A DNA stretch of 64,000 bases, from assembly GCF_003790525.1 (NCBI RefSeq), contig NZ_CP033635.1; one strand, written 5' to 3'. The notes beneath the pieces were generated by a model. The model had not been told where the DNA came from, ran no database searches, and was given only the letters and a program-made list of their open reading frames with translations. This DNA comes from Escherichia coli (GTDB lineage Bacteria; Pseudomonadota; Gammaproteobacteria; Enterobacterales; Enterobacteriaceae). Shown here in pieces: positions 9,777 through 29,805 of this stretch. How positions within the stretch are numbered: position 1 is the stretch's first letter; the number at the start of each line of letters is the position of its first letter. The translations under genes and the position numbers were made by a program.

Positions 9777-9783
9777 ATGGCGA

Positions 9784-11479: not shown

Positions 11480-11506
11480 TTGTCGGCCTGGTGGTGGAAA
11501 ACTTTA
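11480..11506 (-). promoter_or_regulatory. Sigma-28 (FliA) class-3 flagellar promoter for tsr
   Basis: Minus strand reads TAAAGTTT-N11-GCCGACAA (consensus TAAAGTTT-N11-GCCGATAA), about 32 nt upstream of tsr ATG. Confidence 0.7.
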
Positions 11507-11587
11507 TGCTGTGGAAAAGCGTCGGCACTGCTTTTGTTGCAGCAAACTTGCGTTTTTTGTGAGGGTCACACTCTATAGCGGCAGTTT

Positions 11588-12493
11588 ATGGTACAAAGTA
11601 TCAATCTTCTTCGAACCAGTGATACTCCTATGGCTTATAGCATCGATATCATCTCCTGCATTACCGAACGGTTTATGGCGTTAACAGCCACTGAAAAGCG
11701 TATCGCACAATTTATTCTTGATGACGTCTCTGCCGCAGTAGAGTTGCCAATTGCTGAGCTGGCACGGTTAACGCAAACCAGTCAGGCGTCGGTGACGCGT
11801 TTTGCCCGTGCACTGGGGTGCAAAGATGTCCGCGAGTTGAAAGTCAAACTGGCGCAGTCACTGGCTGTCGGGCAGCGGTTTATTCTCGATGTACCGGATC
11901 TTGACGGTGTTCAGGGGATCTACGAAGCGATTATTAGCGTGCTGGAGACGCATCGTCGTTCGCTGGATATGAATGCCATCAGCCAGGCTGTAAGCTGGTT
12001 AAGTCAGGCGCGGCAAATTCTTGCGTTAGGAACTGGCGGCGGTTCCACTATCTGTTCACAGGAGATTCAGTACCGTTTATTCCGTCTGGGGCTACCGGTG
12101 GTCAGTCAGAATGATGCCCTGATGATGAGAATGATGTGCTCGGCAGTCATGCCGCAGGATGTGGTGATTGTGCTTTCGCTGGGCGGTTATACACCGGAAA
12201 TCATCGAAAGTGCGGCAATCGCCCGTCAGTATGGCGCGCGTGTTATTGCCATTACGCCAGCACAAACACCGCTGGCGGAACAGGTGGATCTGGTATTGCC
12301 GTTACTGGTTCAGGAAAGTGATTACATCTTTAAGCCCACCCCTTCCCGCTACGCGATGTTAGCCATGGTCGATGTACTGGCAACAGAACTGGCAATGGCA
12401 AATAAAGCGCAGGCGAAAGATCGCCTGCGGCGGATAAAACTCGTGTTAGACAGCCACCGTGGGGGCGCTAACCGCCAGCCACTTGGCGATTAG
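11588..12493 (+). CDS. RpiR/MurR-family transcriptional regulator (HTH + SIS domain)
   Basis: 301-aa ORF; N-terminal HTH (EKRIAQFILDDVSAAVELPIAELARLTQTSQASVTRFARALG) and C-terminal SIS-like region; true start may be an internal Met. Confidence 0.7.
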   Translation: MVQSINLLRTSDTPMAYSIDIISCITERFMALTATEKRIAQFILDDVSAAVELPIAELARLTQTSQASVTRFARALGCKDVRELKVKLAQSLAVGQRFILDVPDLDGVQGIYEAIISVLETHRRSLDMNAISQAVSWLSQARQILALGTGGGSTICSQEIQYRLFRLGLPVVSQNDALMMRMMCSAVMPQDVVIVLSLGGYTPEIIESAAIARQYGARVIAITPAQTPLAEQVDLVLPLLVQESDYIFKPTPSRYAMLAMVDVLATELAMANKAQAKDRLRRIKLVLDSHRGGANRQPLGD

Positions 12494-12502
12494 CATTGTC
12501 GG

Positions 12503-13972: not shown

Positions 13973-14074
13973 AATTCACATCCTGCCAGTAGAGAGAAAT
14001 TAATGTAAGAGTTCCCGGAGTGCTGAATGTATTCAGCACTCAATTGCGGTCTGTTTTTTTAATTCTTAAATTTA

Positions 14075-14470
14075 TTAGCGGGTCGCGTTATAACAGGTCA
14101 CATCGACTTCGACTTTACAATCGACAACCAGATCAGCCACACAACAAATACGTGCAGGTGGATTCTCGCCAAAAAATTCTCTGAATACTTTATTAAATGA
14201 CTGGAAATAGCGGGCGTCGGTCAGGATCACTTTCACGTGAACCACATCCACCAGGCTATAACCGGCTTCAGTCATGATGTCGACACAGTTTTGAATCGCC
14301 AGTCGTGACTGTTCAACGATTCCGCCTTCTACCACTTCACCGTTTTTCATGGGTGTTTGCCCGGAGACGTACAGCCAGCCGCCCGCCTCAACCGCCCTGG
14401 CAAAAGGCAAATGCTGCCCGCCAGTGCCTGTTCCACCTTCCGTACCGTAACGTTTAATGCTCATATTCAC
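14075..14470 (-). CDS. RidA/YjgF-family reactive enamine/imine deaminase
   Basis: 131 aa, size and sequence typical of RidA/YjgF/TdcF family; 3 nt downstream of the aminoacylase gene. Confidence 0.7.
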   Translation of the reverse strand: MNMSIKRYGTEGGTGTGGQHLPFARAVEAGGWLYVSGQTPMKNGEVVEGGIVEQSRLAIQNCVDIMTEAGYSLVDVVHVKVILTDARYFQSFNKVFREFFGENPPARICCVADLVVDCKVEVDVTCYNATR

Positions 14471-14473
14471 TCC

Positions 14474-15925
14474 TTAATGTGAGGTCTGCCGGCGCAGGAA
14501 GCGTCCCGCACGGCCTGTAATATGTTTATCGGGACCATAGCTCATAACGCCGTTCACCATCACCGCCTCAATGCCATCTGCCGGGCGTTTGGGATCAGAA
14601 AAGCTGGCAACATCACGAATGGTTTGTGGATCGAACAACACCAGGTCCGCAAAATAGCCAACTTTCACCAGCCCACGCTGGGGCAGGCGAAAACGGCTGG
14701 CAGAAAGCCCGGTCATTTTGTGGATAGCCGTGGTCAGTGGGAATAAGCCTTCATCACGGCAATAGTGGCCCAGCACGCGAGGGAAGGCGCCCCATAAACG
14801 TGGATGCGGCATGGGATCATTGGGCAGGCCGTCAGAGCCAATCATACTGACCGGATAACTCAACACTCGGCGGACGTCGCGCTCGTCCATGTTGTAATAG
14901 ATAGCCCCGGCAGGCATTAGCAGCTTCGCGGCCTCCAGCATACTCATCTGCCAGTCGATGGCGATTTGCGCCAGTGTTTTCCCGGCCTGCTGCGGATGTG
15001 TTTGTGACCAGGTGATCACAATATCGAATTCGTCGGTGACTTGTTTGAGATCCAGCGTTGAAGAGCTGGCTGAGTAAGGGTAGACATCGCAGCCAATTTC
15101 CTGGTGTTGACGCATTTGGTCAAAAAAGGCCAACGTTTCTTTTGTCCGCCCCCAGTTTTTCGCCCCGGCGCATTTATGGTGGGAAACCACGACAGGCACT
15201 TTGCCATGACGCCCAATACGAAACGCCTCATCCAGGGCATCGAGAATCGGTTCAAATTCAGAACGCAGATGGGTGGTATAAACGCCCTTCTCACCGGCTA
15301 ATTCTTCCGCCAGCGCCATGACTTCTTCGGTAGTCGCCTGAAATGCCGTTGCATAGGCCAGCCCGGAACTTAACCCCAGCGCCCCCTGACTCAACGCCAG
15401 ACGTAAGTCGGCACGCATAGCGGCAATTTCATCCACCGTCGCCGGGCGAAACAGGTCGTCCATATGGTTATTACGCAGCGCCGTATGACCAATCAGCGTG
15501 CCAACGTTCAGTGACGGCCTGGCTGCTTCCACTGCCTGGGCATAGCTTTCAACGGTAGGATAAATAAAGTGCTCTGCTTCCCCCAACAGATTCATCGGGT
15601 CAGGAACTTCACCTTTCATTTTCGCCGACGCCGCACTAATCCCGCAGTTACCGACAATCACCGTAGTGATCCCCTGGCTGATCTTTGGCAGATATTCCGG
15701 GATGCGAATAACGTTGATATCGTCATGGGTATGAACGTCGATAAACCCTGGTGCCAGCACCCGCCCTTCCCCGTCAATGACCTGCTGCGCCGTAACGTTA
15801 AGCGCAGGGGCAATATCGACAATCCGATCACCTGTTATTGCCACGTCACCGCGAAATTCAGGGCCGCCGCTACCGTCGATAACGGTCACATTTTTGATTA
15901 ACCAGTCAACCTGCATGTTCGTCAC
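14474..15925 (-). CDS. N-acyl-D-amino-acid deacylase (D-aminoacylase), amidohydrolase superfamily
   Basis: 483 aa; metal-binding GFIDVHTHDD, and blocks PKISQGITTVIVGNCGIS, VPVVVSHHK, MIGSDGLP, HPRLWGAFPRVLGHY that match D-aminoacylases as I recall them. Confidence 0.8.
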   Translation of the reverse strand: MTNMQVDWLIKNVTVIDGSGGPEFRGDVAITGDRIVDIAPALNVTAQQVIDGEGRVLAPGFIDVHTHDDINVIRIPEYLPKISQGITTVIVGNCGISAASAKMKGEVPDPMNLLGEAEHFIYPTVESYAQAVEAARPSLNVGTLIGHTALRNNHMDDLFRPATVDEIAAMRADLRLALSQGALGLSSGLAYATAFQATTEEVMALAEELAGEKGVYTTHLRSEFEPILDALDEAFRIGRHGKVPVVVSHHKCAGAKNWGRTKETLAFFDQMRQHQEIGCDVYPYSASSSTLDLKQVTDEFDIVITWSQTHPQQAGKTLAQIAIDWQMSMLEAAKLLMPAGAIYYNMDERDVRRVLSYPVSMIGSDGLPNDPMPHPRLWGAFPRVLGHYCRDEGLFPLTTAIHKMTGLSASRFRLPQRGLVKVGYFADLVLFDPQTIRDVASFSDPKRPADGIEAVMVNGVMSYGPDKHITGRAGRFLRRQTSH

Positions 15926-16116
15926 TCCATTTCTGCAATGGTGACAAGTTAACCATTTACAAGGACGAAAAACAGTGGAAAACTACGCAAAACCCAGATG
16001 ATTTTATGATACTTTTATTCATAAATAATAAGATAAATAAACTAAATATTTATATTTCATTTAGTTACAAATGATACTCACATCCGATACGGTGAAAAAC
16101 TTAAAAGGTAAATGTT

Positions 16117-17337
16117 ATGAAATACCACTCAGAACCTCTGGTTCCCCATAAATCTGCCCTGATGCAAATGCCCGCAAATCTCCTTGCCGAAGATGTCTGT
16201 TTACCTGCCGCGATCATTAAAAAGCAGGCCCTGGAGAACAACATTACGTGGATGCAACGCTACGCTGACGCGCGCGGCGTTTCACTGGCACCGCACGGTA
16301 AAACCACCATGACGCCGTGGATTTTTCAGGCGCAGCAGGCGGCTGGTGCCTGGGCAATAGGTGTCGGTAGCGCATGGCAGGCTGGTGCGGCAATGGCGAG
16401 CGGTATTCAGCGAGTGCTGATGGTTAACCAGCTGGTCGGCAAGGCGAATATGCAGTTGATTGCCCAGTTGCAACGACATTACCCGACGGTCGATTTTATC
16501 AGCTGTATCGACAGCATTGAGAACGCCCGCGCTTTGTCTGCCTTTTTTGCCAGTCAGCAACAGACACTGAACGTGATGATTGAGTTGGGTGTCCCCGGCG
16601 GGCGCTGTGGTTGCCGCTCAAGGGATGCCGCACTGACACTGGCTAAACAGGCAGCCCAATTACCGGGGTTACGCCTGCGGGGGCTTGAGTTATATGAAGG
16701 CGTTTTACACGGTGACGATCCACAACCGCAGGTAGAAGCTCTGCTGCGGGATGCCGCACAACTGGCCTGTGATATGGCAAGTCTGGTTGATGGCGAGTTT
16801 ATTCTCACCGGAGCAGGCACGGTCTGGTATGACGTGGTGTGCAATATCTGGCTGGCGGCAGAAAAGCCTGATAACTGCCGCATTGTTATTCGCCCTGGCT
16901 GCTACATCACTCACGACACCGGGATCTACGACGCGGCACAACAACAGTTGCTTGCCCGTGATCCTGTGGCTTGCGATCTGGCAGGCGATCTCACATCTGC
17001 ACTGGAACTGGTCGCCATGGTGCAATCGGTGCCGGAAGCTGATCGTGCGGTGGTTAATTTTGGTAAGCGTGATTGCGCCTTCGACGCCGGACTGCCGCAA
17101 CCAGTCGCCCACTATCGCAACGGCAAATCACTGGCATTTGATCCACAGGCGATTCGCAGTACAGGCATTATGGATCAGCACTGCATGTTGCAGTTGGGTG
17201 CCGACAGCGACGTGCAAGTGGGGGATATTCTGGTGTTTGGCACATCGCATCCGTGCCTGACCTTCGACAAATGGAAAACGTTGTTATTGACTGATGACGA
17301 CTACAACGTACTGGCAGAATTAGACACTCTCTTCTAA
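16117..17337 (+). CDS. PLP-dependent D-amino-acid dehydratase/aldolase, alanine-racemase-N fold (DSD1-like)
   Basis: 406 aa; candidate PLP lysine in APHGKTTM; divergent from the aminoacylase unit across an AT-rich promoter region. Confidence 0.6.
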   Translation: MKYHSEPLVPHKSALMQMPANLLAEDVCLPAAIIKKQALENNITWMQRYADARGVSLAPHGKTTMTPWIFQAQQAAGAWAIGVGSAWQAGAAMASGIQRVLMVNQLVGKANMQLIAQLQRHYPTVDFISCIDSIENARALSAFFASQQQTLNVMIELGVPGGRCGCRSRDAALTLAKQAAQLPGLRLRGLELYEGVLHGDDPQPQVEALLRDAAQLACDMASLVDGEFILTGAGTVWYDVVCNIWLAAEKPDNCRIVIRPGCYITHDTGIYDAAQQQLLARDPVACDLAGDLTSALELVAMVQSVPEADRAVVNFGKRDCAFDAGLPQPVAHYRNGKSLAFDPQAIRSTGIMDQHCMLQLGADSDVQVGDILVFGTSHPCLTFDKWKTLLLTDDDYNVLAELDTLF

Positions 17338-17604
17338 GAACGCCCCTTCGGTTAATTATCGAAGGGGCATTTTTATTGTGATCTCAATCACATATCCACC
17401 CGACGAATAATTCTTGCCCAACCGCTCACCGCCATTCCTGACCGCTTACATCCCTAAAATAACCACTCAGTTATTTACCTTACTTTACGCGCGCGTAACT
17501 CTGGCAACATCACTGCAGGATAGCGGTCAATTTACCTCCTCAAACGCAACGCAAACCTAGAACGGCTTCGGCCAACTATTAATCAATACATGCCAGGTTT
17601 TACT

Positions 17605-19755
17605 ATGGATACTAAAAAGATATTCAAGCACATACCCTGGGTGATTCTCGGAATCATCGGTGCATTCTGCCTCGCGGTAGTTGCATTACGTCGGGGGGAG
17701 CACGTCAGTGCCCTGTGGATCGTGGTCGCCTCTGTGTCGGTGTATCTGGTGGCTTATCGCTACTACAGTCTGTACATCGCCCAGAAGGTGATGAAACTCG
17801 ACCCCACGCGCGCGACGCCTGCGGTTATTAACAACGACGGTCTGAACTATGTTCCGACCAACCGTTACGTGTTGTTTGGTCACCACTTCGCCGCTATCGC
17901 CGGTGCTGGTCCGCTGGTTGGTCCGGTTCTCGCCGCGCAGATGGGCTACCTGCCTGGCACGCTGTGGCTGCTGGCGGGGGTAGTGCTGGCCGGTGCGGTA
18001 CAGGACTTTATGGTGCTGTTTATCTCCTCTCGCCGTAACGGCGCATCTCTCGGTGAGATGATCAAAGAAGAGATGGGACCAGTACCGGGGACTATCGCGC
18101 TGTTTGGCTGTTTCTTAATCATGATCATCATCCTTGCCGTCCTGGCGCTGATTGTGGTTAAAGCCCTGGCCGAAAGTCCGTGGGGTGTCTTCACCGTTTG
18201 CTCAACCGTACCGATTGCGCTGTTTATGGGTATCTACATGCGCTTTATTCGTCCGGGGCGTGTGGGTGAAGTCTCTGTCATTGGTATCGTGCTGCTGGTT
18301 GCCTCTATCTACTTCGGTGGCGTGATTGCTCACGATCCGTACTGGGGTCCGGCACTGACCTTTAAAGACACCACCATTACCTTCGCGCTGATTGGCTATG
18401 CGTTTGTTTCCGCACTGCTGCCAGTGTGGCTGATCCTCGCACCGCGCGACTATCTGGCAACCTTCCTGAAAATCGGCGTTATCGTCGGCCTGGCGCTGGG
18501 TATCGTGGTGCTGAACCCGGAACTGAAAATGCCTGCGATGACCCAGTACATTGACGGTACTGGCCCGCTGTGGAAAGGCGCTCTGTTCCCGTTCCTGTTC
18601 ATCACCATCGCCTGTGGTGCGGTATCTGGCTTCCACGCGCTGATCTCTTCCGGTACGACGCCGAAACTGCTGGCTAACGAAACCGACGCGCGTTTCATTG
18701 GCTACGGCGCAATGCTGATGGAGTCCTTCGTGGCGATTATGGCGCTGGTTGCTGCGTCCATCATCGAACCGGGTCTTTACTTCGCGATGAACACCCCGCC
18801 TGCTGGCCTTGGCATCACCATGCCTAACCTGCATGAAATGGGTGGCGAGAACGCGCCGATCATCATGGCGCAGCTGAAAGACGTTACCGCACACGCGGCA
18901 GCGACCGTCAGCTCCTGGGGCTTCGTGATTTCGCCAGAGCAGATCCTGCAAACAGCGAAAGATATTGGTGAGCCTTCTGTCCTGAACCGTGCAGGTGGTG
19001 CGCCGACGCTGGCGGTAGGTATCGCTCACGTGTTCCACAAAGTGCTGCCGATGGCTGACATGGGCTTCTGGTATCACTTCGGTATTCTGTTCGAAGCCCT
19101 GTTCATCCTGACCGCGCTGGATGCGGGTACCCGTTCTGGCCGCTTTATGCTGCAAGACCTGCTGGGTAACTTCATCCCGTTCCTGAAAAAAACCGACTCT
19201 CTGGTTGCCGGTATCATCGGTACTGCGGGCTGTGTGGGTCTGTGGGGGTACCTGCTGTATCAGGGCGTGGTCGATCCGCTGGGCGGCGTTAAGAGCCTGT
19301 GGCCGCTGTTCGGTATCTCCAACCAGATGCTGGCAGCCGTAGCGCTGGTACTGGGCACCGTTGTGCTGATTAAGATGAAGCGCACCCAATACATCTGGGT
19401 AACTGTTGTTCCGGCTGTATGGCTGCTTATCTGCACCACCTGGGCGCTGGGCCTGAAACTGTTCAGCACCAACCCGCAGATGGAAGGCTTCTTCTACATG
19501 GCAAGCCAGTACAAAGAGAAGATTGCTAACGGTACTGACCTGACGGCACAGCAGATTGCCAACATGAACCACATCGTTGTGAACAACTACACCAACGCGG
19601 GCCTGAGTATTCTGTTCCTGATTGTGGTGTACAGCATCATCTTCTACGGTTTCAAAACCTGGCTGAAGGTGCGTAACAGCGACAAACGTACTGACAAAGA
19701 AACTCCGTACGTTCCAATCCCGGAAGGCGGCGTGAAGATCTCTTCGCACCACTAA
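17605..19755 (+). CDS. btsT: Pyruvate/H+ symporter BtsT (CstA family)
   Basis: ORF 17590..19755; start set at MDTKKIFKHIPW to give 716 aa; recognised as YjiY/BtsT. Confidence 0.95.
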   Translation: MDTKKIFKHIPWVILGIIGAFCLAVVALRRGEHVSALWIVVASVSVYLVAYRYYSLYIAQKVMKLDPTRATPAVINNDGLNYVPTNRYVLFGHHFAAIAGAGPLVGPVLAAQMGYLPGTLWLLAGVVLAGAVQDFMVLFISSRRNGASLGEMIKEEMGPVPGTIALFGCFLIMIIILAVLALIVVKALAESPWGVFTVCSTVPIALFMGIYMRFIRPGRVGEVSVIGIVLLVASIYFGGVIAHDPYWGPALTFKDTTITFALIGYAFVSALLPVWLILAPRDYLATFLKIGVIVGLALGIVVLNPELKMPAMTQYIDGTGPLWKGALFPFLFITIACGAVSGFHALISSGTTPKLLANETDARFIGYGAMLMESFVAIMALVAASIIEPGLYFAMNTPPAGLGITMPNLHEMGGENAPIIMAQLKDVTAHAAATVSSWGFVISPEQILQTAKDIGEPSVLNRAGGAPTLAVGIAHVFHKVLPMADMGFWYHFGILFEALFILTALDAGTRSGRFMLQDLLGNFIPFLKKTDSLVAGIIGTAGCVGLWGYLLYQGVVDPLGGVKSLWPLFGISNQMLAAVALVLGTVVLIKMKRTQYIWVTVVPAVWLLICTTWALGLKLFSTNPQMEGFFYMASQYKEKIANGTDLTAQQIANMNHIVVNNYTNAGLSILFLIVVYSIIFYGFKTWLKVRNSDKRTDKETPYVPIPEGGVKISSHH

Positions 19756-19763
19756 CCGTGTTT

Positions 19764-19791
19764 AGCCCCGCTTCGGCGGGGCTTTGTTCTT
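19764..19791 (+). terminator. Intrinsic terminator after btsT
   Basis: GC-rich hairpin agccccgc-ttcg-gcggggct followed by ttgttctt. Confidence 0.7.
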
Positions 19792-19804
19792 ATCAGAGTG
19801 AACT

Positions 19805-20008
19805 ATGTTTGGTAACTTAGGACAGGCAAAAAAATATCTCGGCCAGGCGGCGAAGATGTTGATTGGCATTCCAGACTACGACAACTACGTCGAGCATATG
19901 AAGACCAACCATCCCGACAAGCCGTACATGAGCTATGAAGAATTCTTCCGCGAACGCCAGAACGCGCGCTACGGCGGCGATGGTAAAGGCGGTATGCGCT
20001 GTTGTTAA
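19805..20008 (+). CDS. yjiX: YjiX (DUF466-family small protein)
   Basis: 67-aa ORF immediately downstream of btsT, conserved partner in K-12. Confidence 0.85.
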
Positions 20009-20018
20009 TGGAGAGAGC

Positions 20019-20975
20019 ATGAACCCGATTGCAGTTACCCTACTCACCGGTTTTTTAGGCGCGGGCAAAACCACCCTGCTGCGCCATATTCTTAATGAAC
20101 AGCACGGCTACAAAATTGCCGTGATTGAAAACGAATTCGGCGAAGTCTCCGTTGATGATCAACTGATTGGCGATCGCGCCACGCAGATCAAAACGCTGAC
20201 CAACGGCTGCATCTGTTGTTCGCGCTCCAACGAGCTGGAGGACGCGCTACTCGACCTGCTGGATAATCTCGACAAGGGCAATATTCAGTTCGACCGTCTG
20301 GTCATTGAATGCACAGGCATGGCCGATCCCGGCCCGATTATTCAGACCTTTTTCTCCCATGAGATTTTATGCCAGCGTTACCTGCTGGACGGCGTGATTG
20401 CGCTGGTGGATGCGGTACATGCCGATGAGCAGATGAACCAGTTCACCATCGCCCAGTCACAGGTTGGCTACGCCGACCGTATTCTGCTGACTAAAACCGA
20501 CGTCGCAGGTGAAGCAGAAAAACTGCGCGAACGCCTGGCACGCATCAACGCCCGCGCACCGGTCTACACCGTCACCCACGGCGACATCGACCTGGGCCTG
20601 TTGTTCAACACCAACGGTTTTATGCTGGAAGAAAACGTCGTCAGCACCAAACCGCGTTTCCACTTTATCGCGGATAAACAAAACGATATTTCGTCGATTG
20701 TGGTGGAACTGGATTACCCGGTAGATATCAGCGAAGTTTCCCGCGTGATGGAAAACCTGCTGCTGGAATCGGCGGATAAACTGCTGCGTTACAAAGGGAT
20801 GCTGTGGATTGACGGCGAACCTAACCGCCTGCTGTTCCAGGGTGTCCAGCGCCTCTACAGCGCCGACTGGGACAGGCCATGGGGCGATGAAAAACCGCAT
20901 AGCACGATGGTGTTTATCGGGATTCAGCTGCCGGAGGAAGAGATTCGGGCGGCGTTTGCGGGGTTAAGGAAGTAA
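20019..20975 (+). CDS. yjiA: Zn-associated P-loop GTPase YjiA (CobW/COG0523 family)
   Basis: Start at MNPIAVTLLTGFLGAGKTTLL (P-loop), 318 aa; CxCC motif NGCICCS. Confidence 0.9.
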   Translation: MNPIAVTLLTGFLGAGKTTLLRHILNEQHGYKIAVIENEFGEVSVDDQLIGDRATQIKTLTNGCICCSRSNELEDALLDLLDNLDKGNIQFDRLVIECTGMADPGPIIQTFFSHEILCQRYLLDGVIALVDAVHADEQMNQFTIAQSQVGYADRILLTKTDVAGEAEKLRERLARINARAPVYTVTHGDIDLGLLFNTNGFMLEENVVSTKPRFHFIADKQNDISSIVVELDYPVDISEVSRVMENLLLESADKLLRYKGMLWIDGEPNRLLFQGVQRLYSADWDRPWGDEKPHSTMVFIGIQLPEEEIRAAFAGLRK

Positions 20976-21305
20976 TACCCTTAACCTACTAATACGAAGC
21001 GGACGAGGATAAAACCCTATCATTTTCCGTTCGCTTCACTATTTTATTTCGTTCCAACACCCATTAAAATTAAAAATATAATTCTGCCATAATTTCCTGA
21101 ACACAGATGTAATTACATTGCCACCACTCATACTTTTAAAAATAATTTATATGATAGACGTCCTATTGAGGCGTAATAGATGTATTAATTTCCAAATACG
21201 CAAACATTCTGGTACAGTCCAAAAAAGAAAAATCATCAACCAAAACAATCAGCAAATAAATTAACAACGATTGAATCATAATCAACACGAATACAAGAGA
21301 TTAAC

Positions 21306-23156
21306 ATGGCAACAATAATCCCAACAATCAGTAGCTGCAACGATAAAATTACTGCCGGAGAGAAAAGGCTGGCAAGAATTCTGGAAAGAGGACTAGGCGA
21401 AGAGTGCTGCTGTTGGTATGACATTCCCACGGGTGATAAGCATCTTCACCCAGATTTTATGATACTTTCGCCAGAAAAAGGCATTATTTTTCTCGAGGTA
21501 AAAGATTGGTTTATTACAAAAATAAAAAAAGCCAACAAGTCTAATGTGTTGTATGAGACACAAAATGGTATTCAATCTTTAAAGAATCCGATAGAACAAG
21601 TTAGGCGATATGCTTTCGAAGCTGTAAACCAGTTAAAAAAAGACCCCCTATTGTGCCAACAGGATGATCGTTACAATGGCAATCTTCTTTTCCCCTATGG
21701 ATATGGCGTCTACTTTAGTAATATTACACGAGAAGCATTAAATAATAAATTTACTCAAGAAGAGCTGCTCGGGATCTTCCCATCAGATCTCATCATCTGC
21801 AAAGACGAAATAAATGAATTCATGTCAAAAGAGGATGTTTCATCCAAAATACATTCGTTGATTAAATATGACTTCAAATGTCATGCTACACAAGAACAGT
21901 TGAACAGGATTAGATGGCACTTATACCCCGATGTCAGAATAGAAAGGGAAAAGAGAAGTAAAAACCGTGATGAATTTAGTGTCGATGCACCAACCATCAT
22001 TTCTATCCTGGATACTCAACAGGAACAACTTGCCAGAAGTATGAGAGATGGCCACCGGATCATTCATGGTGTTGCAGGTTCAGGGAAGACATTGATCCTC
22101 TATCATCGCTGTCAGGAATTAGCGAAAAAAAATGACAGCGAAAAGCCAATTCTTGTCATTTGCTACAATATTACTTTAGCCAAAAAACTTCGGTCGATGT
22201 TCATCAATCATCCCTTTGCAGAGAAAATAAAGGTTAAAAATTTTCATGCTTGGTGTTTCCAACAAATTAAAGAAAACAAGATCACTATTCCAGAAGGGGA
22301 TAATATTTTTGAAAATATGGAGCTAGCGTTGACTGATGGTTTCAAGACAGGAAAAATAAAACCAGAACAATACAGCGCTGTATTAATTGATGAAGGACAT
22401 GATTTTAAGCCAGAATGGTTAAAAATCCTGGCAAAAATGACTGACTCTCAGGACGAGAATTTGCTATTCCTTTATGATGATGCTCAGTCAATTTACCAAA
22501 AAAAGAAAGCATTAGACTTTACACTGTCCAGCGTAGATATTAAAGCGACAGGACGCACAACCATTCTTAATATAAATTATAGAAACACACAGCAAATCCT
22601 ACACTTTGCCAGTTGCATTGCATTTAATTATCTTAATAGCCATATCGATAGTTCTTTAACCTATCATAAACCTGCTGCGGGAGGAATGAATGGCGATTAT
22701 CCCAACCTTGAACATTTCGACACACAGGACGAAGAAATAGCACGAGCAGTCGAATGGATTACAGAGCAAAATGAACAAGGGATTCCGTGGTCTGAAATTG
22801 CTATACTAAGTCCATCAACTCACACCCTTTCTAACTCTCTAAGCTCTGTACTTGAATCGAAAAACATCCCCTTTAATCTTATTGTAAGCTCTGCAGATAA
22901 AAAGTCCTGGACGCCAGAACAAGAGCGTATTTCTGTTATGCCATTACCCAGCAGTAAAGGACTTGAGTTTCACTCAGTTGTCATTATTGATGCAGCGAGA
23001 ACACGGGATAATAGCGATGATTTGAGTGAGGATATAAAGAGACTCTATGTAGGTTTTACCCGAGCACGTTGCAATCTCTTGGTAACCTTGCACGGTGAAG
23101 GTGCGTTAAATGAGCATCTACTAAAAACCTATGAGCAAAGCCCACAATATATGTAA
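21306..23156 (+). CDS. NERD-domain nuclease fused to SF1 (UvrD-like) helicase; candidate single-gene anti-phage protein (Nhi-like architecture)
   Basis: 616 aa; NERD/PD-(D/E)xK-like N-terminus (HPDFMILSPEKGIIFLEVKDW); Walker A GVAGSGKT; Walker B VLIDEGHDF; UvrD_C-like RLYVGFTRARCNLLV; sits in an AT-rich block in the slot K-12 uses for mrr-hsdRMS. Confidence 0.75.
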   Translation: MATIIPTISSCNDKITAGEKRLARILERGLGEECCCWYDIPTGDKHLHPDFMILSPEKGIIFLEVKDWFITKIKKANKSNVLYETQNGIQSLKNPIEQVRRYAFEAVNQLKKDPLLCQQDDRYNGNLLFPYGYGVYFSNITREALNNKFTQEELLGIFPSDLIICKDEINEFMSKEDVSSKIHSLIKYDFKCHATQEQLNRIRWHLYPDVRIEREKRSKNRDEFSVDAPTIISILDTQQEQLARSMRDGHRIIHGVAGSGKTLILYHRCQELAKKNDSEKPILVICYNITLAKKLRSMFINHPFAEKIKVKNFHAWCFQQIKENKITIPEGDNIFENMELALTDGFKTGKIKPEQYSAVLIDEGHDFKPEWLKILAKMTDSQDENLLFLYDDAQSIYQKKKALDFTLSSVDIKATGRTTILNINYRNTQQILHFASCIAFNYLNSHIDSSLTYHKPAAGGMNGDYPNLEHFDTQDEEIARAVEWITEQNEQGIPWSEIAILSPSTHTLSNSLSSVLESKNIPFNLIVSSADKKSWTPEQERISVMPLPSSKGLEFHSVVIIDAARTRDNSDDLSEDIKRLYVGFTRARCNLLVTLHGEGALNEHLLKTYEQSPQYM

Positions 23157-23173
23157 AAATGATAAATTATCTC

Positions 23174-23205
23174 CATAACGCCCGGTAACGCTGTACCGGG
23201 CGTTA
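23174..23205 (+). terminator. Perfect 13-bp stem-loop downstream of NERD-helicase gene
   Basis: ataacgcccggta-acgctg-taccgggcgttat, 18 nt after stop; no strong T-run, so may be a structural element rather than a classic terminator. Confidence 0.5.
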
Positions 23206-23288
23206 TGAATGTATATCTAAGATATTAGTCACGCCTGATAGCCGCTACCAAAAACGCCATCATCTCCCTCTCATCTTTGCTGTGATAA

Positions 23289-23594
23289 AAGCGTACCATT
23301 TTGCTGTTAAATTCCAGCGCTTTAGCCACTGGAATTAACAAGTTCAAACTTCCGACAACGAAGTTCCAGTTATTACAAAAATTACTGGCAAAAGAGATGA
23401 AAAGCGTAGTTGACAACACATCGAAATATACTGACTGGAGTAAACGCGATGATATTAAAGCGAAACTGAAAGTTGAACTTATTCTGCTTCTACACAAGCA
23501 TAAGTTCCCGCCAGTAGCGAATGATGATGTTTATATGGGTGTGCTGGCACAGGCAGAGAATTTTAAAGAACATCATATGAGTGCTTTAAATTAA
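23289..23594 (+). pseudogene. Frame-closed 3' gene fragment, possibly the C-terminal domain of a type I restriction HsdR subunit
   Basis: Open frame begins straight after a TAA with no ATG or SD (track ORF 23301..23594 opens on TTG); helical, K/E-rich sequence ...VDNTSKYTDWSKRDDIKAKLKVELILLLHKHKFPPV... that I associate with HsdR C-termini (recollection, not verified). Confidence 0.3.
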
Positions 23595-23602
23595 TTATGA
23601 AG

Positions 23603-23628
23603 GCCGGATACACTTTGTTATCCGGCCA
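23603..23628 (+). terminator. Hairpin after the gene fragment
   Basis: ggccggata-cactttgt-tatccggcc, 9-bp stem, 8 nt after the fragment stop. Confidence 0.45.
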
Positions 23629-23713
23629 TTGTGAATTAACGTTAATTTCTCTTCCAGATATTTCCAGTAACGCTTTTATTATTTTCTATTTTTAGCTGGA
23701 CTTTCCCTGTATT

Positions 23714-23733
23714 TACTGATGATATGTCCAGGT
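23714..23733 (+). promoter_or_regulatory. Candidate LexA (SOS) box upstream of symE
   Basis: tactgatgatatgtccaggt contains CTG-N10-CAG about 80 nt upstream of symE ATG; K-12 symE is SOS-inducible. Confidence 0.45.
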
Positions 23734-23769
23734 ATTTAGCGCGGTGCGAATGTGCGCCAACACACCCGC

Positions 23770-23850
23770 ACCGCTCATCACAATCACTATTTATGGAGAA
23801 TAGTAATCATGACTGACACGCATTCTATTGCACAACCGTTCGAAGCAGAA
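23770..23850 (-). ncRNA. symR: SymR antisense sRNA (antitoxin) opposite the symE 5' end; position approximate
   Basis: Inferred from K-12 arrangement, where SymR is encoded antisense across the symE start; not independently visible in sequence. Confidence 0.4.
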
Positions 23851-24150
23851 GTCTCCCCGGCAAATAACCGTCAATTAACCGTGAGTTATGCGAGTCGCTA
23901 CCCGGATTACAGCCGTATTCCCGCCATCACCCTGAAAGGTCAGTGGCTGGAAACCGCCGGTTTTGCTACCGGCACGGCGGTAGATGTCAAAGTGATGGAA
24001 GGCTGTATTGTCCTCACCGCCCAACCACCCACCGCCGAAGAGAGCGAACTGATGCAGTCACTGCGCCAGGTGTGCAAGCTGTCAGCGCGTAAACAAAAGC
24101 AGGTGCGGGAATTTATTGGGGTGATTGCCGGTAAACAGAAAGTCGCCTGA
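23809..24150 (+). CDS. symE: SOS-induced toxin SymE (AbrB/SpoVT-fold endoribonuclease-like)
   Basis: In-frame ATG within ORF 23752..24150 gives [30 protein letters not shown]..., 113 aa, recognised as SymE. Confidence 0.9.
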
Positions 24151-24158
24151 TACATTGA

Positions 24159-24182
24159 CCCGGTAGCGCCAGTGCTACCGGG
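24159..24182. terminator. Bidirectional hairpin between convergent symE and GmrSD-like gene
   Basis: cccggtagc-gccagt-gctaccggg, 9-bp stem, in the 46-bp convergent gap. Confidence 0.6.
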
Positions 24183-24196
24183 TATTATTCGCCGTG

Positions 24197-26290
24197 TTAG
24201 ACCAACGCGCTCTCCATCTGTTTTTCAAATGCCTGACGAATTAATCCCATAACGTAAGGAAGTTGTGCGAGGTCGCTGAAACCAATTTCCACATCACCAT
24301 TGCCCCAGCGCCCAACATTTGTCACATCTTTGGCAATACCTTTCGGATCGACCAGTTCATGAAACTGCATATTAAGCGACAATCGCAGTCGGCTTTTTTG
24401 CGGCACAACATCAACAAAATTCGTTTCCGCTTTAAACGCAATATAGAGCTTCAATACTTCCTGCGTGATCCCTGCGTCCAGGCGCATAACTTCATCGCGA
24501 AGATGATCAAATAACACCCGGCTATGCGAACCATCAGCAAGAAAAGGATAATCACTCAGGCTATAACTGGTTTTGTTTTCAGGCTGCGCCCGATAAACAG
24601 CTAAAACCTCTTCAGGAAGAGCAGGCGCTTGCCAGACCTGAACCGCGAGATCGGCCAGACGATCGGCACGGGCGCGAATGGCGGCTTCATCCCATTTTTC
24701 GCACTGTCCAAGACCGATATTCAAATAAAGCGGGCTATGCTTAAAGCCGTCTTCAATATCGCGTTTTTCCGCGAAAGGTCTGTCACTGTAGCGGGAGTTA
24801 TAGCGCGTTAATGTGAGATTCCCCAACGTATGTAACAGTTCTTTATGCACACGCTGCCAGTCGCTTCCCAGCTCTTCACGCCATTTAGCCGACAAATTTT
24901 CGTTCTGCGGCATAATATGCTCAATCGTAAACTCTTCCACGCGCTCTCTGCGTTTATCGTTTTCCAGTCGTCGTAACCAGTAGCTGCGACTGCGGAAGTT
25001 ATAGAGATCGCGAACTTTTAATTCCCGTTTAAATTCATCATCGTTGGGGAAACGACGATATGAAGGCAGATTCAGAAAATGTACCTGAATACTTTCCAGA
25101 TATTTTTCTTTAATAATGACCTTATAAAAGGTAGCAAACGTCTTGTTAAGAGAATTTGTCGGAATCGCACATACTGCACGGCGGAAAACATAAGATTCAA
25201 TTAAACGAATTATGCTCAGGAAATCTTCGTGAGGCAAATCGCCATTTTTATAGTCATGATAAAGCGCCAGTAAGAAAGGATACGCCACATCGACCTTTAA
25301 CTCGCGCAAATCCTGAAAAGCCGTAGCAAGCGATTTGTCACTTTCTTTACCCAATGCCATTGCACAGTAATACTCCGCGTAGATGTGAATATCTTCAACC
25401 AGGTGATCCACGCCTTTTTCAGCAACACTCTGGCTGCGGGCATGGAGTTTAAATGCCTCATAGACTTCATCTGTACGAGGGATCTCCCCCGTTTTTACCG
25501 TCAGATAATGACGCATAAAGCTGTCAAAATATTCGCTGTAACCTTGCTGACCAAAAGCGACTTCCATTGGACGCCAGTGATCTTCATACAACCGGGTTTG
25601 ATGCTCTGGTTCGAGACCCATCAGAATAAAATTGCGCACCAGATCGGCCTGACTTAACGCCTTACCGGTAGAGTTCATACTTTCAAAAATCAGTTGCGGA
25701 TTATCCTGACCACGATTAAGCGCCACATCGACAATTAATAATTTTGCTAACCCACGACATAAGGGGATCAAGTCATCACCGAGTTTGGCAATTTGCTCAT
25801 CAAAGAAAGTAAAGTTTTCCATTATTCGATGGGAATAGTTTTCTGGCATTGGTCTTTGTTTTATTAACGCCAGCAAACTGTCTTTATCAGTCTCGGTCAG
25901 CAGTAATTTAAATCCTTTCTCGCCGGACTCATAAGGATTGAGTAAATAATAATTACGCAATTTCATTGCTGAAAAGCCATCAAAAACTTCGTCTTCGCCA
26001 AGATGACGCGATAAAGCCTCAATCAGCAACATTGCGGTCGTCAGCCTTTGTTGACCATCAATGACCAGTAACGGAGAAATACCAGAAACCTGATACAACC
26101 CCTGCTCAATATAAACAACCGAACCGATAAAATGCGCTGATATATCGTCACGCTTTCCGGCACGAATGATGTCGTCCCAAAGTTGCCGACATTGTTGTTC
26201 TGTCCATGAATAAGTCCGTTGATAAATGGGAATCACAAACTGCTGCGAACGTTTTAAAAAATCGAGTAGGCGGGCTTCTGTAGCTTTCAT
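24197..26290 (-). CDS. DUF262 (ParB-like NTPase) + DUF1524 (His-Me finger nuclease) protein: GmrSD-family type IV restriction-type enzyme
   Basis: 697 aa; DUF262 signature LVIDGQQRLTT near N-terminus; C-terminal HNH-like block EHIMPQN ... LHTLGNLTL; occupies the mcrBC side of the immigration control region. Confidence 0.8.
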   Translation of the reverse strand: MKATEARLLDFLKRSQQFVIPIYQRTYSWTEQQCRQLWDDIIRAGKRDDISAHFIGSVVYIEQGLYQVSGISPLLVIDGQQRLTTAMLLIEALSRHLGEDEVFDGFSAMKLRNYYLLNPYESGEKGFKLLLTETDKDSLLALIKQRPMPENYSHRIMENFTFFDEQIAKLGDDLIPLCRGLAKLLIVDVALNRGQDNPQLIFESMNSTGKALSQADLVRNFILMGLEPEHQTRLYEDHWRPMEVAFGQQGYSEYFDSFMRHYLTVKTGEIPRTDEVYEAFKLHARSQSVAEKGVDHLVEDIHIYAEYYCAMALGKESDKSLATAFQDLRELKVDVAYPFLLALYHDYKNGDLPHEDFLSIIRLIESYVFRRAVCAIPTNSLNKTFATFYKVIIKEKYLESIQVHFLNLPSYRRFPNDDEFKRELKVRDLYNFRSRSYWLRRLENDKRRERVEEFTIEHIMPQNENLSAKWREELGSDWQRVHKELLHTLGNLTLTRYNSRYSDRPFAEKRDIEDGFKHSPLYLNIGLGQCEKWDEAAIRARADRLADLAVQVWQAPALPEEVLAVYRAQPENKTSYSLSDYPFLADGSHSRVLFDHLRDEVMRLDAGITQEVLKLYIAFKAETNFVDVVPQKSRLRLSLNMQFHELVDPKGIAKDVTNVGRWGNGDVEIGFSDLAQLPYVMGLIRQAFEKQMESALV

Positions 26291-26386
26291 TCTGACGTCT
26301 TTCCGTGAAGCGATGATTTCGCAATAATAACCACTTCCTTGTGGAGGTTATAGAGAAATCCTGTTTATCCGCGACGAACTGCCCCA

Positions 26387-26551
26387 TCACTCCACATCCT
26401 CCCTGCGTAACCCAATATCCCTCAACCGCTCATCACTCATCTGCTGTAACACCCGCCGGGCCTGCATTTGCCGCCGCCAACGCCTCACTGCCTGCCAGAG
26501 TTGCACAAGTCCAATAAACGGTGCTTTAGCTTTGTTTTCGTGAAATTCCAT
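26387..26551 (-). CDS. yjiS: YjiS, DUF1127 small protein
   Basis: Hand-translated 54-aa ORF (below the track cutoff): MEFHENKAKAPFIGLVQLWQAVRRWRRQMQARRVLQQMSDERLRDIGLRREDVE; recognised as K-12 YjiS. Confidence 0.8.
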   Translation of the reverse strand: MEFHENKAKAPFIGLVQLWQAVRRWRRQMQARRVLQQMSDERLRDIGLRREDVE

Positions 26552-26727
26552 CTGCTGCCTCCTCATCTTTCAGAGGCTTCATCATCCGCCTTCTGGCAGT
26601 TCACAATACAGATGCAAATATTAGTTTTATTTAACATACAGACAGGTTAAAACAGCATCTGCATCCGGTTTTTTAGCCTCATCTGTACCGGTTTTTCTCT
26701 CTGTATGGTCCAAATAAGGAATACAGC

Positions 26728-28140
26728 ATGACGCGTTATCAACATCTGGCGACTTTGCTTGCCGAGCGGATTGAGCAAGGGCTGTATCGTCACGGGGAGA
26801 AATTGCCGTCGGTGCGCAGCTTAAGTCAGGAGCACGGCGTCAGCATCAGTACCGTGCAGCAGGCGTACCAGACGCTGGAAACGATGAAGCTCATCACTCC
26901 GCAGCCGCGTTCGGGTTATTTTGTCGCACAACGTAAAGCCCAGCCGCCAGTACCGCCGATGACGCGTCCGGTGCAGCGCCCGGTGGAAATTACCCAGTGG
27001 GATCAGGTGCTGGATATGCTGGAGGCGCATAGCGACAGTTCCATTGTTCCGTTAAGTAAAAGCACGCCGGATGTCGAAACGCCCAGCCTGAAACCGCTGT
27101 GGCGGGAGCTAAGCCGGGTGGTGCAGCATAATCTGCAAACCGTTCTCGGTTATGACTTGTTAGCCGGCCAGCGGGTATTGCGCGAGCAGATTGCCCGCCT
27201 GATGCTCGACAGCGGCTCGGTGGTCACCGCCGATGACATCATCATCACCAGCGGCTGCCATAACTCGATGTCGCTGGCGTTGATGGCAGTGTGTAAACCG
27301 GGCGATATTGTCGCGGTCGAATCCCCCTGTTATTACGGTTCGATGCAGATGCTGCGCGGCATGGGCGTGAAAGTGATTGAAATCCCCACCGATCCAGAAA
27401 CAGGCATCAGCGTTGAAGCGCTGGAACTGGCGCTGGAGCAGTGGCCGATTAAAGGCATCATTCTGGTGCCAAACTGTAATAATCCGCTGGGATTTATTAT
27501 GCCGGACGCGCGCAAACGGGCCGTTCTCTCTCTCGCTCAGCGTCATGATATTGTGATTTTTGAAGATGATGTCTACGGCGAACTGGCGACGGAGTATCCG
27601 CGCCCGCGGACCATTCATTCCTGGGATATCGACGGGCGAGTGCTGTTGTGCAGCTCGTTCAGTAAAAGTATTGCTCCAGGCCTGCGCGTGGGTTGGGTCG
27701 CACCGGGGCGCTATCACGATAAACTGCTGCATATGAAATATGCCATCAGCAGCTTTAATGTGCCGTCCACGCAAATGGCGGCGGCAACGTTTGTGCTGGA
27801 AGGTCACTATCATCGCCATATCCGGCGGATGCGGCAGATCTATCAGCGCAATTTGGCGCTTTATACCTGCTGGATACGGGAATATTTTCCCTGCGAAATC
27901 TGTATTACGCGCCCGAAAGGCGGATTTTTACTGTGGATCGAATTGCCTGAACAGGTCGATATGGTTTGCGTTGCGCGGCAGCTATACCGCATGAAAATCC
28001 AGGTGGCGGCAGGCTCGATTTTCTCAGCTTCCGGCAAATACCGTAATTGTCTGCGCATCAACTGCGCTTTGCCGCTCAGCGAAACCTATCGCGAAGCACT
28101 GAAGCAAATTGGCGAAGCCGTGTATCGGGCAATGGAATGA
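26728..28140 (+). CDS. yjiR: MocR-family regulator (GntR HTH fused to aminotransferase-like domain)
   Basis: 470 aa; N-terminal GntR HTH, large PLP-fold C-terminal domain; synteny. Confidence 0.9.
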   Translation: MTRYQHLATLLAERIEQGLYRHGEKLPSVRSLSQEHGVSISTVQQAYQTLETMKLITPQPRSGYFVAQRKAQPPVPPMTRPVQRPVEITQWDQVLDMLEAHSDSSIVPLSKSTPDVETPSLKPLWRELSRVVQHNLQTVLGYDLLAGQRVLREQIARLMLDSGSVVTADDIIITSGCHNSMSLALMAVCKPGDIVAVESPCYYGSMQMLRGMGVKVIEIPTDPETGISVEALELALEQWPIKGIILVPNCNNPLGFIMPDARKRAVLSLAQRHDIVIFEDDVYGELATEYPRPRTIHSWDIDGRVLLCSSFSKSIAPGLRVGWVAPGRYHDKLLHMKYAISSFNVPSTQMAAATFVLEGHYHRHIRRMRQIYQRNLALYTCWIREYFPCEICITRPKGGFLLWIELPEQVDMVCVARQLYRMKIQVAAGSIFSASGKYRNCLRINCALPLSETYREALKQIGEAVYRAME

Positions 28141-28326
28141 ATTCGAAATAGTGGCGAGCCCCCTGATTTCCTCTCACGAATAGCGTGTGACTCGTTTTAT
28201 CTTTGCAGGGTCATCTCCACGTTCCAGCATGGCTTAGGCAAAATGCGCTTCGTTCATGCCGGATGCCATGTGAACACCTTACCAGGTCTACAAAATCTTT
28301 AAAATTCAATATATTTAATGGGTTAT

Positions 28327-28355
28327 GTAGACCTGATAAGCGTAGCGCATCAGGC
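28327..28355. repeat. REP (repetitive extragenic palindromic) element
   Basis: gtagacctgataagcgtagcgcatcaggc resembles the REP consensus (...GCCTGATGCG...CTTATCAGGCCTAC); a partial second copy (caggtctaca) lies about 35 nt upstream. Confidence 0.6.
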
Positions 28356-28382
28356 TGCTTTGCGTTTGTCATCAGTCTCTGA

Positions 28383-29339
28383 TTAGTACTCGATCCATGG
28401 ATCGCGCTTGCTTTCAGGCAAGGGCTGCTCTAATGCCTGCATTTGCTCTGCCGAAAGTCCGGTATATCGTTGTATCCATTCAGGATCCGCCCCATTCTGC
28501 AACAACAATCGGAGGAGGCTCTTTTCCCCTTCTTCTTTCCCTTCTTTCCTCCCCCTCTCCCTTCCCAACAGCCATCCATCATTATGAATTCGCTCTGCAA
28601 TCGTCATTATTCGCTCCCTGTGTTGTGGCATTCGACGGATAAGTTCGCTGATAAACTCATTAAAACGCGCTTCATCGCCAGTCAGTAAAATGTAATTTAA
28701 CAGCGCGGTTATCTGGCTGTCATTAGCGCACCCTGTAACCAGTAATACTGCCAGTTGATCAATAAGCCCCATTAGATCGCGCTGGCGAATATGCTTTTGG
28801 ATCAACTCCAGCAGGGCGACTCTGCGATGCTGCACAATCTCGTCGTCTGGCACGACAGTGACATCCACCAGCGGGAACGCTGCGGTATAAAGCTTCCGCG
28901 CGGTAGCCGGGTCGGCAAATTCATCCAGCCAGCACAAAGACCAGGGGTAAGGACTACGGCTACTGTGATAAAACAGCATCGGGATGACCAGCGGTAGCGG
29001 CCGGCGTTTATCATGCTCGATATGGCGCTGCATCACCGCCATGGAATATCGCATCAGGCGAAAGGCCATATGGATATCCTCGCGGCTCTGATGTTCAATC
29101 ACCACATAAATATAGCCATCTCCTTCGCGGGTCTTTACCGACCACAGAATATCGGAATGTAGCGCCCGCAATTTTTCATCGACAAAGCTGGCGTATTCCA
29201 GTTTTAAGCTGTCGAGATCGCACAGTTCACGTAAATCTTTGGGTAAGTGGATCTCCATAAAATCCCGCGCGGTGTCAGGGTGGGTGAGAAAAGATTTAAA
29301 TAATGCGTCATGCGGCGTGCTGGTCGTGAAGTTTGTCAT
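28383..29339 (-). CDS. rpnD: Rpn-family recombination-promoting nuclease (PD-(D/E)xK, YhgA-like), intact
   Basis: 318-aa uninterrupted ORF recognised as YjiP/YjiQ (RpnD); acidic/lysine-rich C-terminal tail. Confidence 0.8.
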
Positions 29340-29805
29340 GGCGATCCGTCACCTGTAGATAAGATGGCCCGACTGTAGCGACTAACAAAACCATTCTCAC
29401 CCGGCAATTTCTCGTTCCCCGAGGTGCTTTCCAGGCTATTTTTGTTCCTCTGCAAACGATACATTTTTCCGGAAACAGGCTCGCGTTTTACATTTCCTGT
29501 ACCCGGCAGATATTCCCCTTTCCACCGCACTCTTTTGATTAACCGCAAATTTTAATTACACTTAAGGTGTATATTTTCTATGCAACCCATCAATTCAAGA
29601 GGTGTAATGTGCTGATGACTATTTGTAATCGTTATACATTCTGACCTGGAGTCAGAAGGTATTTCTCTGTCTGTGTGTTCACAGGCAGTGTGGTTGATTA
29701 CATGAAATTCAGTACATTTGCCCTTCTCGCCTGCCTTTCGTCATTACCGACGGTATTGAATTTCGTTTTCCCCATTGGGGTTCTCCGGACAAGGAGTTGT
29801 TTGTT

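Follow-up and report, generated by a model that had tools for sequence, protein, structure and literature searches.

A NERD nuclease–UvrD-type helicase protein, and candidate single-protein defence gene, in Escherichia coli's Immigration Control Region

We analysed a stretch of 64,000 nucleotides of Escherichia coli DNA (contig NZ_CP033635.1 of RefSeq assembly GCF_003790525.1). This stretch is hereafter the window, and positions refer to it unless another locus is named. It carries a gene, here called the NERD-UvrD gene, whose product joins a nuclease domain of the NERD type to a helicase resembling UvrD. The product is identical to WP_000190966.1 of E. coli SMS-3-5, which RefSeq names '3'-5' exonuclease'. 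The gene sits in a short cassette of low guanine-plus-cytosine (GC) content, swapped into a well-known restriction hotspot. The features of the gene and its cassette are as follows.

21306..23156, plus strand: the NERD-UvrD open reading frame (ORF), 616 amino acids (aa), ATG start, intact frame
21306..21923, plus strand: N-terminal nuclease domain (N-domain), aa 1-206, with Pfam NERD over aa 17-110
21927..22010, plus strand: variable linker, predicted to be disordered, aa 208-235, with a predicted local distance difference test score (pLDDT) <50 in the full-length AlphaFold2 (AF2) model
22011..23153, plus strand: predicted compact helicase core like that of UvrD/Rep/PcrA, of superfamily 1A (SF1A), aa 236-616, placed by Pfam, PDB, Foldseek and motifs
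20977..23383, no strand assigned: strain-specific low-GC cassette carrying the NERD-UvrD gene, 2,407 bp, 37.5% GC
21118..21146, plus strand: best sigma-70-like promoter match, TTGCCA-17-AATAAT, 10/12 in a consensus scan
23174..23207, plus strand: perfect 14-bp-stem hairpin, beginning 18 nt past the stop codon, -27 kcal/mol

A first reading of this DNA, made from its letters alone (the sequence-only reading), had proposed a NERD PD-(D/E)xK nuclease and an SF1 helicase in one polypeptide. This proposal holds up. All of the motif strings that it quoted lie within the 616-residue product (HPDF at 48-51, LEVKDW at 63-68, GSGKT at 258-262, DEGHDF at 362-367 and VGFTRAR at 582-588). Pfam recovers NERD (PF08378) over aa 17-110 (E 3.8e-8) and, in the helicase part, UvrD-helicase over aa 236-325, AAA_19 over aa 238-398 (E 1.1e-9, 39 bits) and UvrD_C over aa 421-526 and 537-596 (E ~1e-8). 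Besides its Pfam match, the N-terminal domain has the conserved E, D and ExK of a NERD nuclease and a restriction-endonuclease-like fold, and its putative catalytic residues are E19, D50, E64 and K66. A conserved RIRWHLxPE motif occupies aa 201-209. The helicase part carries motifs Q, I, Ia, II, III, IV, V and VI of the SF1A UvrD/Rep/PcrA group together with the UvrD Pfam domains (Q-motif region 236-244, Walker A 255-262, Walker B 362-365, motif III 390-397, IV 424-427, V 549-555 and VI 581-587). Sequence searches of the PDB matched this part to PcrA and UvrD, and found no solved structure of the N-domain. A CARF or SAVED sensor domain was not found in the protein.

Among 74 homologues (41-65% identity), the putative nuclease residues E19, D50, E64 and K66 are invariant. 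So are the helicase residues of Walker A (G258-T262), Walker B (D362, E363), motif III (Y390 D391 D392. Q394. I396 Y397), motif IV (N424 Y425 R426 N427), motif V (K551 G552 L553 E554 F555) and motif VI (Y581 V582.. T585 R586 A587). Because the catalytic residues and motifs do not vary across this set, we conclude that nuclease and helicase are both under purifying selection, and both active sites look intact and, judged by their residues, functional. The linker behaves differently in the homologue alignment: along most of aa 208-235, a majority consensus residue is absent. The N-terminus is kept among homologues (M1 A2 .. I5 P6), which backs the ATG start. Taken at the level of its sequence, the gene is real and well formed, and probably functional.

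The full-length AF2 model has a pLDDT of 81.8 and a predicted template modelling score (pTM) of 0.59. It lays the protein out as an N-domain (aa 17-206), the disordered linker (208-235) and a compact helicase (236-616). The large accessory subdomains 1B and 2B of UvrD, Rep and PcrA are missing; in the model, short insertions (roughly aa 313-354 and 429-466) stand in their place, and the helicase part has ~380 aa compared with ~650-720 aa for UvrD and PcrA. We therefore class the helicase, as modelled, as a compact variant of the UvrD/Rep/PcrA type. When the whole model was compared with the PDB in Foldseek, the top matches were UvrD, PcrA and Rep (E ~1e-15), with template modelling scores to UvrD of 0.41-0.47. 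Schlafen 11 (SLFN11) came fourth, followed by Upf1/Ighmbp2. Schlafen 11 and the other group III Schlafens, which are eukaryotic antiviral nuclease-helicases, are among the closest known systems.

The cassette has sharp edges. We placed them by megablast against 5,426 complete E. coli genomes, comparing the window with genomes that lack the gene. Homology to the gene-less genomes stops at 20975/6 (query 176/177), which is the yjiA stop codon, and restarts at 23384 (query 2585), inside a type I hsdR gene. The NERD-UvrD gene has 38.2% GC, whereas yjiA has 54.3% and the window overall 48.5%, so the sequence-only reading was right to call it AT-rich. Its claim of horizontal acquisition is likewise borne out by this sharp-edged, 2.4-kb, low-GC block, which replaces an R-M (restriction-modification) cluster in the Immigration Control Region (ICR), an established enterobacterial defence island running from yjiA to yjiN (PMC12707154). 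The reading had also taken the hairpin at the 3' end as a sign of acquisition. The hairpin itself is real (z = -5.8 vs shuffles), and many homologues have 3' hairpins as well. These are unrelated in sequence, so we rejected the hairpin as a mobility or boundary signal. Since there is no sequence conservation downstream of homologues, we regard it as an ordinary 3' hairpin, probably a terminator or an mRNA-stabilising structure; a U-run is absent on the plus strand. Promoter-like sites are no more frequent upstream of the gene than in shuffled sequence, and the match at 21118..21146 is a candidate only. Rfam found no hidden RNA genes in the cassette.

Positions 13000-31700 of the window are identical to E. 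coli SMS-3-5, and the gene order is btsT, yjiX, yjiA, the NERD-UvrD gene, a C-terminal remnant of hsdR, SymR/symE, a GmrSD-like gene, yjiS and yjiR. The features to the right of the cassette are these.

23385..23594, plus strand: C-terminal remnant of HsdR, the type I restriction subunit, matching PADLOC REase_I positions 963-1027 of 1029 (E 1.5e-25)
23738-24150: SymR/symE toxin-antitoxin pair
23738-23814, minus strand: SymR, found by Rfam (92.8 bits; the sole Rfam match)
24197-26290, minus strand: GmrSD-like gene (DUF262/DUF1524), an intact frame of 697 aa, matching PADLOC Orf5 (E 1.7e-222) and also HEC-06

The 210-bp hsdR remnant, which RefSeq annotates as a pseudogene, shares 96-99% identity with the 3' end of intact hsdR in sequence type 131 (ST131) and other strains. 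In ST131, the slot of the cassette is filled by ~8.3 kb that comprise BrnTA, a restriction endonuclease, hsdM, hsdS and hsdR. From the contents of that slot, we conclude that the cassette took the place of a toxin-antitoxin pair and a restriction cluster and that the end of hsdR is the scar left behind. The remnant and SymR/symE lie downstream of the gene in all three of the E. coli carriers inspected (SMS-3-5, E2348/69 and TUM18780). Enteropathogenic E. coli (EPEC) E2348/69 has the same cassette, scar and symE without the GmrSD-like gene. In Salmonella enterica (GCA_024258635.1), a homologue of 63% identity occupies the ICR too, preceded by BrnTA and followed by a 191-aa HsdS fragment (stretch 8987-13030 of that locus, L002). 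Its boundaries are unlike the E. coli ones and hint that this cassette was swapped in independently. In Klebsiella aerogenes, the homologue stands alone and adjoins yjiR.

RefSeq splits the identical GmrSD-like sequence of SMS-3-5 into a 387-aa coding sequence and a 'DUF262 pseudogene', and does likewise in TUM18780; this split looks like an annotation artefact. The gene may be the same as Eco94GmrSD, a GmrSD homologue described for the ICR of some E. coli (PMC12707154). Two further ORFs of the window lie further to the right. The first (34987-36960, plus strand) is a second low-GC ORF (~35% GC) of 657 aa, whose C-terminal half consists of pentapeptide repeats; the type III secretion effectors PipB2, PipB and SopA, and also HetL, match it below threshold. 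The second (39514-44754, plus strand) encodes an inverse autotransporter adhesin of 1,746 aa, of which residues 12-839 match IatC at 1118 bits, under the 2400-bit cut-off.

This setting bears on one alternative to the reading that we favour below. The protein might be a type IV-like, modification-dependent restriction enzyme, in which the motor scans DNA and the NERD domain cuts only where it meets a foreign modification. Such an enzyme would need no methyltransferase partner, which would account for the absence of one here. The slot in ST131 holds a stand-alone restriction endonuclease gene as well as a type I R-M system, and a GmrSD-type type IV enzyme lies nearby in SMS-3-5. A conserved extension of the N-domain (aa 111-206) has no assigned function, and phages that lose a DNA methylase escape an analogous Nhi-like protein (10.1101/2022.08.27.505566). 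We hold this alternative to be improbable, if the least so of the three that we weigh.

By its profile matches, the protein is assigned to a family that has already been catalogued. The best PADLOC model is PDLC01087, 'C3a187 NERD+UvrD' (E 1.3e-140, 468 bits), which matches residues 1-599 over positions 1-547 of 559, with the same domain architecture. C3a187 was defined in 2018 (Shah et al.) by its adjacency to type III cas cassettes and was predicted to be an accessory (PMC6546367), and CRISPR auxiliary genes include both NERD and UvrD (PMC10910872). A more distant relative is the PADLOC model RTasNERD-Hel, which also matches over its full length (1-594 vs 1-510 of 519, E 3.6e-22, 77 bits compared with 468 for C3a187). 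It shares the N-terminal NERD and the C-terminal helicase, and a NERD-helicase accompanies 7 of the 17 UG34 defence reverse transcriptases (PMC9226505).

These two models raise the possibility that the protein is an effector or accessory module whose recruitment or activation depends on another defence system, type III CRISPR-Cas or a defence reverse transcriptase (RT) for instance. The E. coli copy would in that case be an orphan, scarcely active by itself or dependent on an unlinked partner. The definition of C3a187 by cas adjacency, the CRISPR auxiliary lists and the UG34 association all speak for such dependence. Against it, the E. coli gene stands alone in the ICR, where its neighbours are yjiA, the hsdR remnant, symE and the GmrSD-like gene. 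The SMS-3-5 annotation shows neither a cas nor an RT gene over ~8 kb to the left or right of the gene, and none was seen beside the homologues inspected. No partner is conserved at ~90 loci, the protein has no detected CARF or SAVED domain, and the gene is intact, with invariant catalytic residues, in solo contexts across many phyla. We judge this the least probable of the three alternatives.

The sequence-only reading had called the protein 'Nhi-like', and here the analogy of architecture stands while family membership does not. Nhi and Nhi-like proteins consist of an N-terminal nuclease and a DUF2075/PF09848 helicase (10.1101/776245; 10.1101/2022.05.11.491447). The Nhi helicase is described as SF1B-like and reported to be bipolar, and immunity depends on both the nuclease and the helicase activities (10.1101/776245). 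The E. coli protein resembles Nhi of Staphylococcus epidermidis (SERP2475) and its relatives in being a chain of ~600 aa, encoded by a single ORF, with an N-terminal D...ExK nuclease of PD-(D/E)xK type, a spacer of ~100 aa and an SF1 helicase, and in that its gene stands alone, whether in a defence island or on a plasmid. It differs in the helicase, which has UvrD-type motifs III (DDAQSIY) and IV (NYRN) and UvrD_C. PF09848 (Schlafen group 3) matches at only 20.8 bits (E 2.6e-4, aa 252-401) and is overlapped by the stronger AAA_19, UvrD-helicase and UvrD_C matches. The PADLOC Nhi model (PDLC02372) reaches 34 bits over residues 235-295 only (model 183-244 of 470), and BLASTP against the Nhi sequence from the preprint supplement finds the Walker A region alone (E 3e-5), with no collinear homology.

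When a profile of nine Nhi homologues was compared by hhalign, the helicase from Walker B to motif VI, its C-terminal half, aligned with 98% probability and the N-domain with 0.25%, a figure from a nine-sequence Nhi alignment that leaves very remote homology conceivable. We rejected homology of the two nuclease domains on this basis; their likeness is by eye (EFDLL..NIELK vs PDFMIL..FLEVK). The glyoxalase-like C-terminal domain of Nhi is absent from the E. coli protein, and the NERD-UvrD family differs in its taxonomy, being found mostly in Proteobacteria (Gram-negatives) and Cyanobacteria. On these comparisons, we regard the resemblance to Nhi as one of design only and do not count the protein as a member of the Nhi family. 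The kind of system, a single-protein nuclease-helicase defence, is thus known, and the domain lineage is different. NERD nucleases occur in other validated defence systems, namely HEC-02 (10.1101/2024.01.29.577857) and ZwsA (10.64898/2026.04.06.716636).

Gabija GajB and RecB/AddA offer a further comparison, because they too pair a UvrD-like SF1A motor with a nuclease for DNA degradation. Models of GajB matched the helicase part only, and only partially, with E values down to 1e-20 (best 72 bits, aa 355-524). GajB itself has no nuclease domain and requires GajA, and a GajA-like neighbour is absent here, so the gene is not a Gabija component by this measure. In RecB/AddA the nuclease is C-terminal, the chains are about twice as long and the proteins act in complexes, whereas the nuclease of NERD-UvrD is N-terminal.

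The gene is present in 100 of the 5,426 complete E. coli genomes (1.8%), at 98-100% identity and as a single chromosomal copy in each, a patchy distribution of the kind seen for accessory genes. Among carriers with listed annotation, E. coli LR-62-2 (NZ_AP027576.1) has the sole disrupted copy, split by IS903B. Beyond E. coli, the family is large: 5.8 billion proteins yielded over 7,000 clusters of homologues (90% identity). The 120 best homologues, from Enterobacterales, Vibrionaceae and many other bacteria, are nearly all full-length NERD + UvrD proteins of ~605-635 aa, with a few shorter or longer. At least 561 relatives came up in a scan in which each species was represented by one genome, and the 80 loci that we kept come from Gamma- and Betaproteobacteria, Cyanobacteria, Verrucomicrobia, Nitrospirae and others. 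A hidden Markov model (HMM) of the N-domain, run against 1.84 billion representative proteins, matched 200 representative clusters at E<=1e-30. The matches listed are ~590-650 aa long or shorter, the shorter ones being assumed, unchecked, to be fragments, and no other fusion partner is evident among them. The N-domain thus appears tied to the NERD + UvrD architecture.

Relatives of ~39-42% identity are carried by E. coli IncF plasmids, conjugative plasmids of Vibrio harveyi, Nostoc plasmids and Ralstonia megaplasmids. None was detected in 50,697 phage records (tblastn), and a PHROGs search returned generic helicase families only.

The plasmid copies bear on another alternative, that of a horizontally transferred helicase-nuclease for DNA repair, recombination or replicon maintenance, processing ends or forks in the manner of RecB/AddA or Dna2. 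Such an enzyme would work for the host or for a mobile element and would have no part in immunity. The combination of an SF1A helicase with a PD-(D/E)xK nuclease is the design of RecB/AddA too, and the NCBIfam models of recB and addA match weakly. The plasmid relatives lie near partition, SOS (umuDC) and recombinase genes, and some chromosomal homologues have no defence neighbours. Scores against the NCBIfam repair helicases (UvrD, PcrA, Rep, RecB, AddA and HelD), however, are far under the curated cut-offs (for UvrD, 49-58 bits vs 965-1144), and the nuclease is N-terminal and of NERD type, unlike that of RecB/AddA. The rarity of the gene in E. coli, its replacement of an R-M cluster in the ICR and the failure to find the family in phage genomes also speak against a repair role. 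We consider such a role unlikely, placing it second among the alternatives.

Whether the gene acts alone was approached by clustering the ORFs within 6 kb of it at ~90 loci from several phyla. No family is broadly common among these loci, so a conserved partner gene did not emerge. The E. coli gene comes without a methyltransferase, immunity protein or sensor partner. Two candidate partners were rejected. The first, a small S-adenosylmethionine-dependent methyltransferase, is restricted to Vibrionaceae (five loci) and absent from the window. It is a class-I enzyme of ~190-200 aa (Methyltransf_11/23/25), encoded divergently ~180-320 bp upstream of the homologue in Photobacterium, Vibrio and Aliivibrio (loci L006, L007, L011, L012 and L015). 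Beyond it the genes differ, with a PLD-SNF2 helicase once and an HNH_2 protein once. This enzyme may be a partner confined to that lineage, or a system of its own. The second candidate, endonucleases of the HNH_2 (PF13391) type, occurs at 7-8 loci, including distant phyla (L011/L012, L015, L021, L063, L069 and L072), with distances (0.1-6 kb) and orientations that vary; we read this as co-residence in islands.

Some homologues do lie among defence genes. At 15 loci, 9 of the 30 immediate neighbours match PADLOC (E<=1e-6), and these matches include a type II restriction endonuclease, an HNH restriction endonuclease, PD-Lambda-1, PDC-S09 and a type III methyltransferase fragment. Among genes 7-10 kb away, a comparison set that is not a true background and that rests on crude ORF calling, 3 of 29 match (HamA, HEC-01A and WYL). 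The near matches are consistent with residence in defence islands. In Alcanivorax quisquiliarum (L028; 2120-2974 and 8335-9384), the homologue lies in a clear defence island, adjoining a type II restriction endonuclease (E 3e-155), with Hachiman HamA (E 1.5e-123) 7 kb away.

What we observe are intact domains with conserved catalytic residues, a gene that stands alone, a cassette that was exchanged into a restriction hotspot, and carriage on plasmids. Our favoured reading, to which we give somewhat better than even chances, is that the protein is a self-contained, ATP-driven nuclease-helicase that serves as a single-protein defence against incoming phage or plasmid DNA. In this role, the compact UvrD-type motor would load on single-stranded or forked DNA and translocate with ATP, an activity expected from the SF1A family. 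Its polarity would be 3'->5', going by the helicase class alone. The motor would feed or position DNA for the NERD nuclease, held on a flexible linker of ~28 residues, and the nuclease would cleave it with a metal ion, as expected from the PD-(D/E)xK family. In the absence of an accompanying methyltransferase, immunity protein or sensor, discrimination between self and foreign DNA would be built into the substrate preference of the protein itself. By analogy with Nhi, it may act without sequence specificity on replication intermediates of incoming DNA; preferred substrates could be replication intermediates, free ends or single-stranded DNA coated with single-stranded DNA-binding protein, as reported for Nhi. 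Alternatively, discrimination could depend on a modification or a phage-supplied trigger. The role in defence, the direction of movement, the substrate and the link between the two activities are all inferred; the family is bioinformatically known and uncharacterised.

Several points weigh against this single-protein defence reading. We found no experimental test of the NERD-UvrD family in the literature, and no sequence feature accounts for the sparing of self DNA. The excess of PADLOC matches among immediate neighbours is not significant (9/30 vs 3/29, Fisher p = 0.10). Several homologues are surrounded by common metabolic genes and lack an evident defence neighbour (for example, in Microbulbifer), and the Vibrio coralliilyticus homologue has none except the small methyltransferase. 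The mutual orientation of the nuclease and helicase domains is unreliable in the model, given its pTM and the disordered linker, so the coupling of unwinding to cleavage is an assumption.

A broader proposal, which we put forward speculatively and think rather unlikely as a whole, is that NERD-SF1A proteins are a portable 'motorised nuclease' effector. They would act solo on plasmids and in hotspots, the enterobacterial ICR among them, and could also serve as a module of type III CRISPR-Cas and UG34 RT systems. Together with Nhi, they would form a bacterial counterpart of the Schlafen-11 type, for which the distinction between self and non-self would be intrinsic, made through replication or recombination intermediates of the invading DNA and not through modification.

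If active, the NERD-UvrD protein would represent a second, non-orthologous family of one-protein nuclease-helicase immunity beside Nhi, with a UvrD-type motor. The RefSeq name '3'-5' exonuclease' is uninformative in this respect, and solo copies may escape reporting as defence genes because PADLOC v2 models the family only as a CRISPR accessory. The gene is a good and cheap candidate for testing, carried by the well-studied strains EPEC E2348/69 and SMS-3-5, and would be no surprise to specialists. Its bearing is on how partner-less nuclease-helicases spare host DNA. Its swap for a type I R-M cluster in a classic E. coli restriction hotspot also offers a natural experiment on the exchange of defence cassettes.

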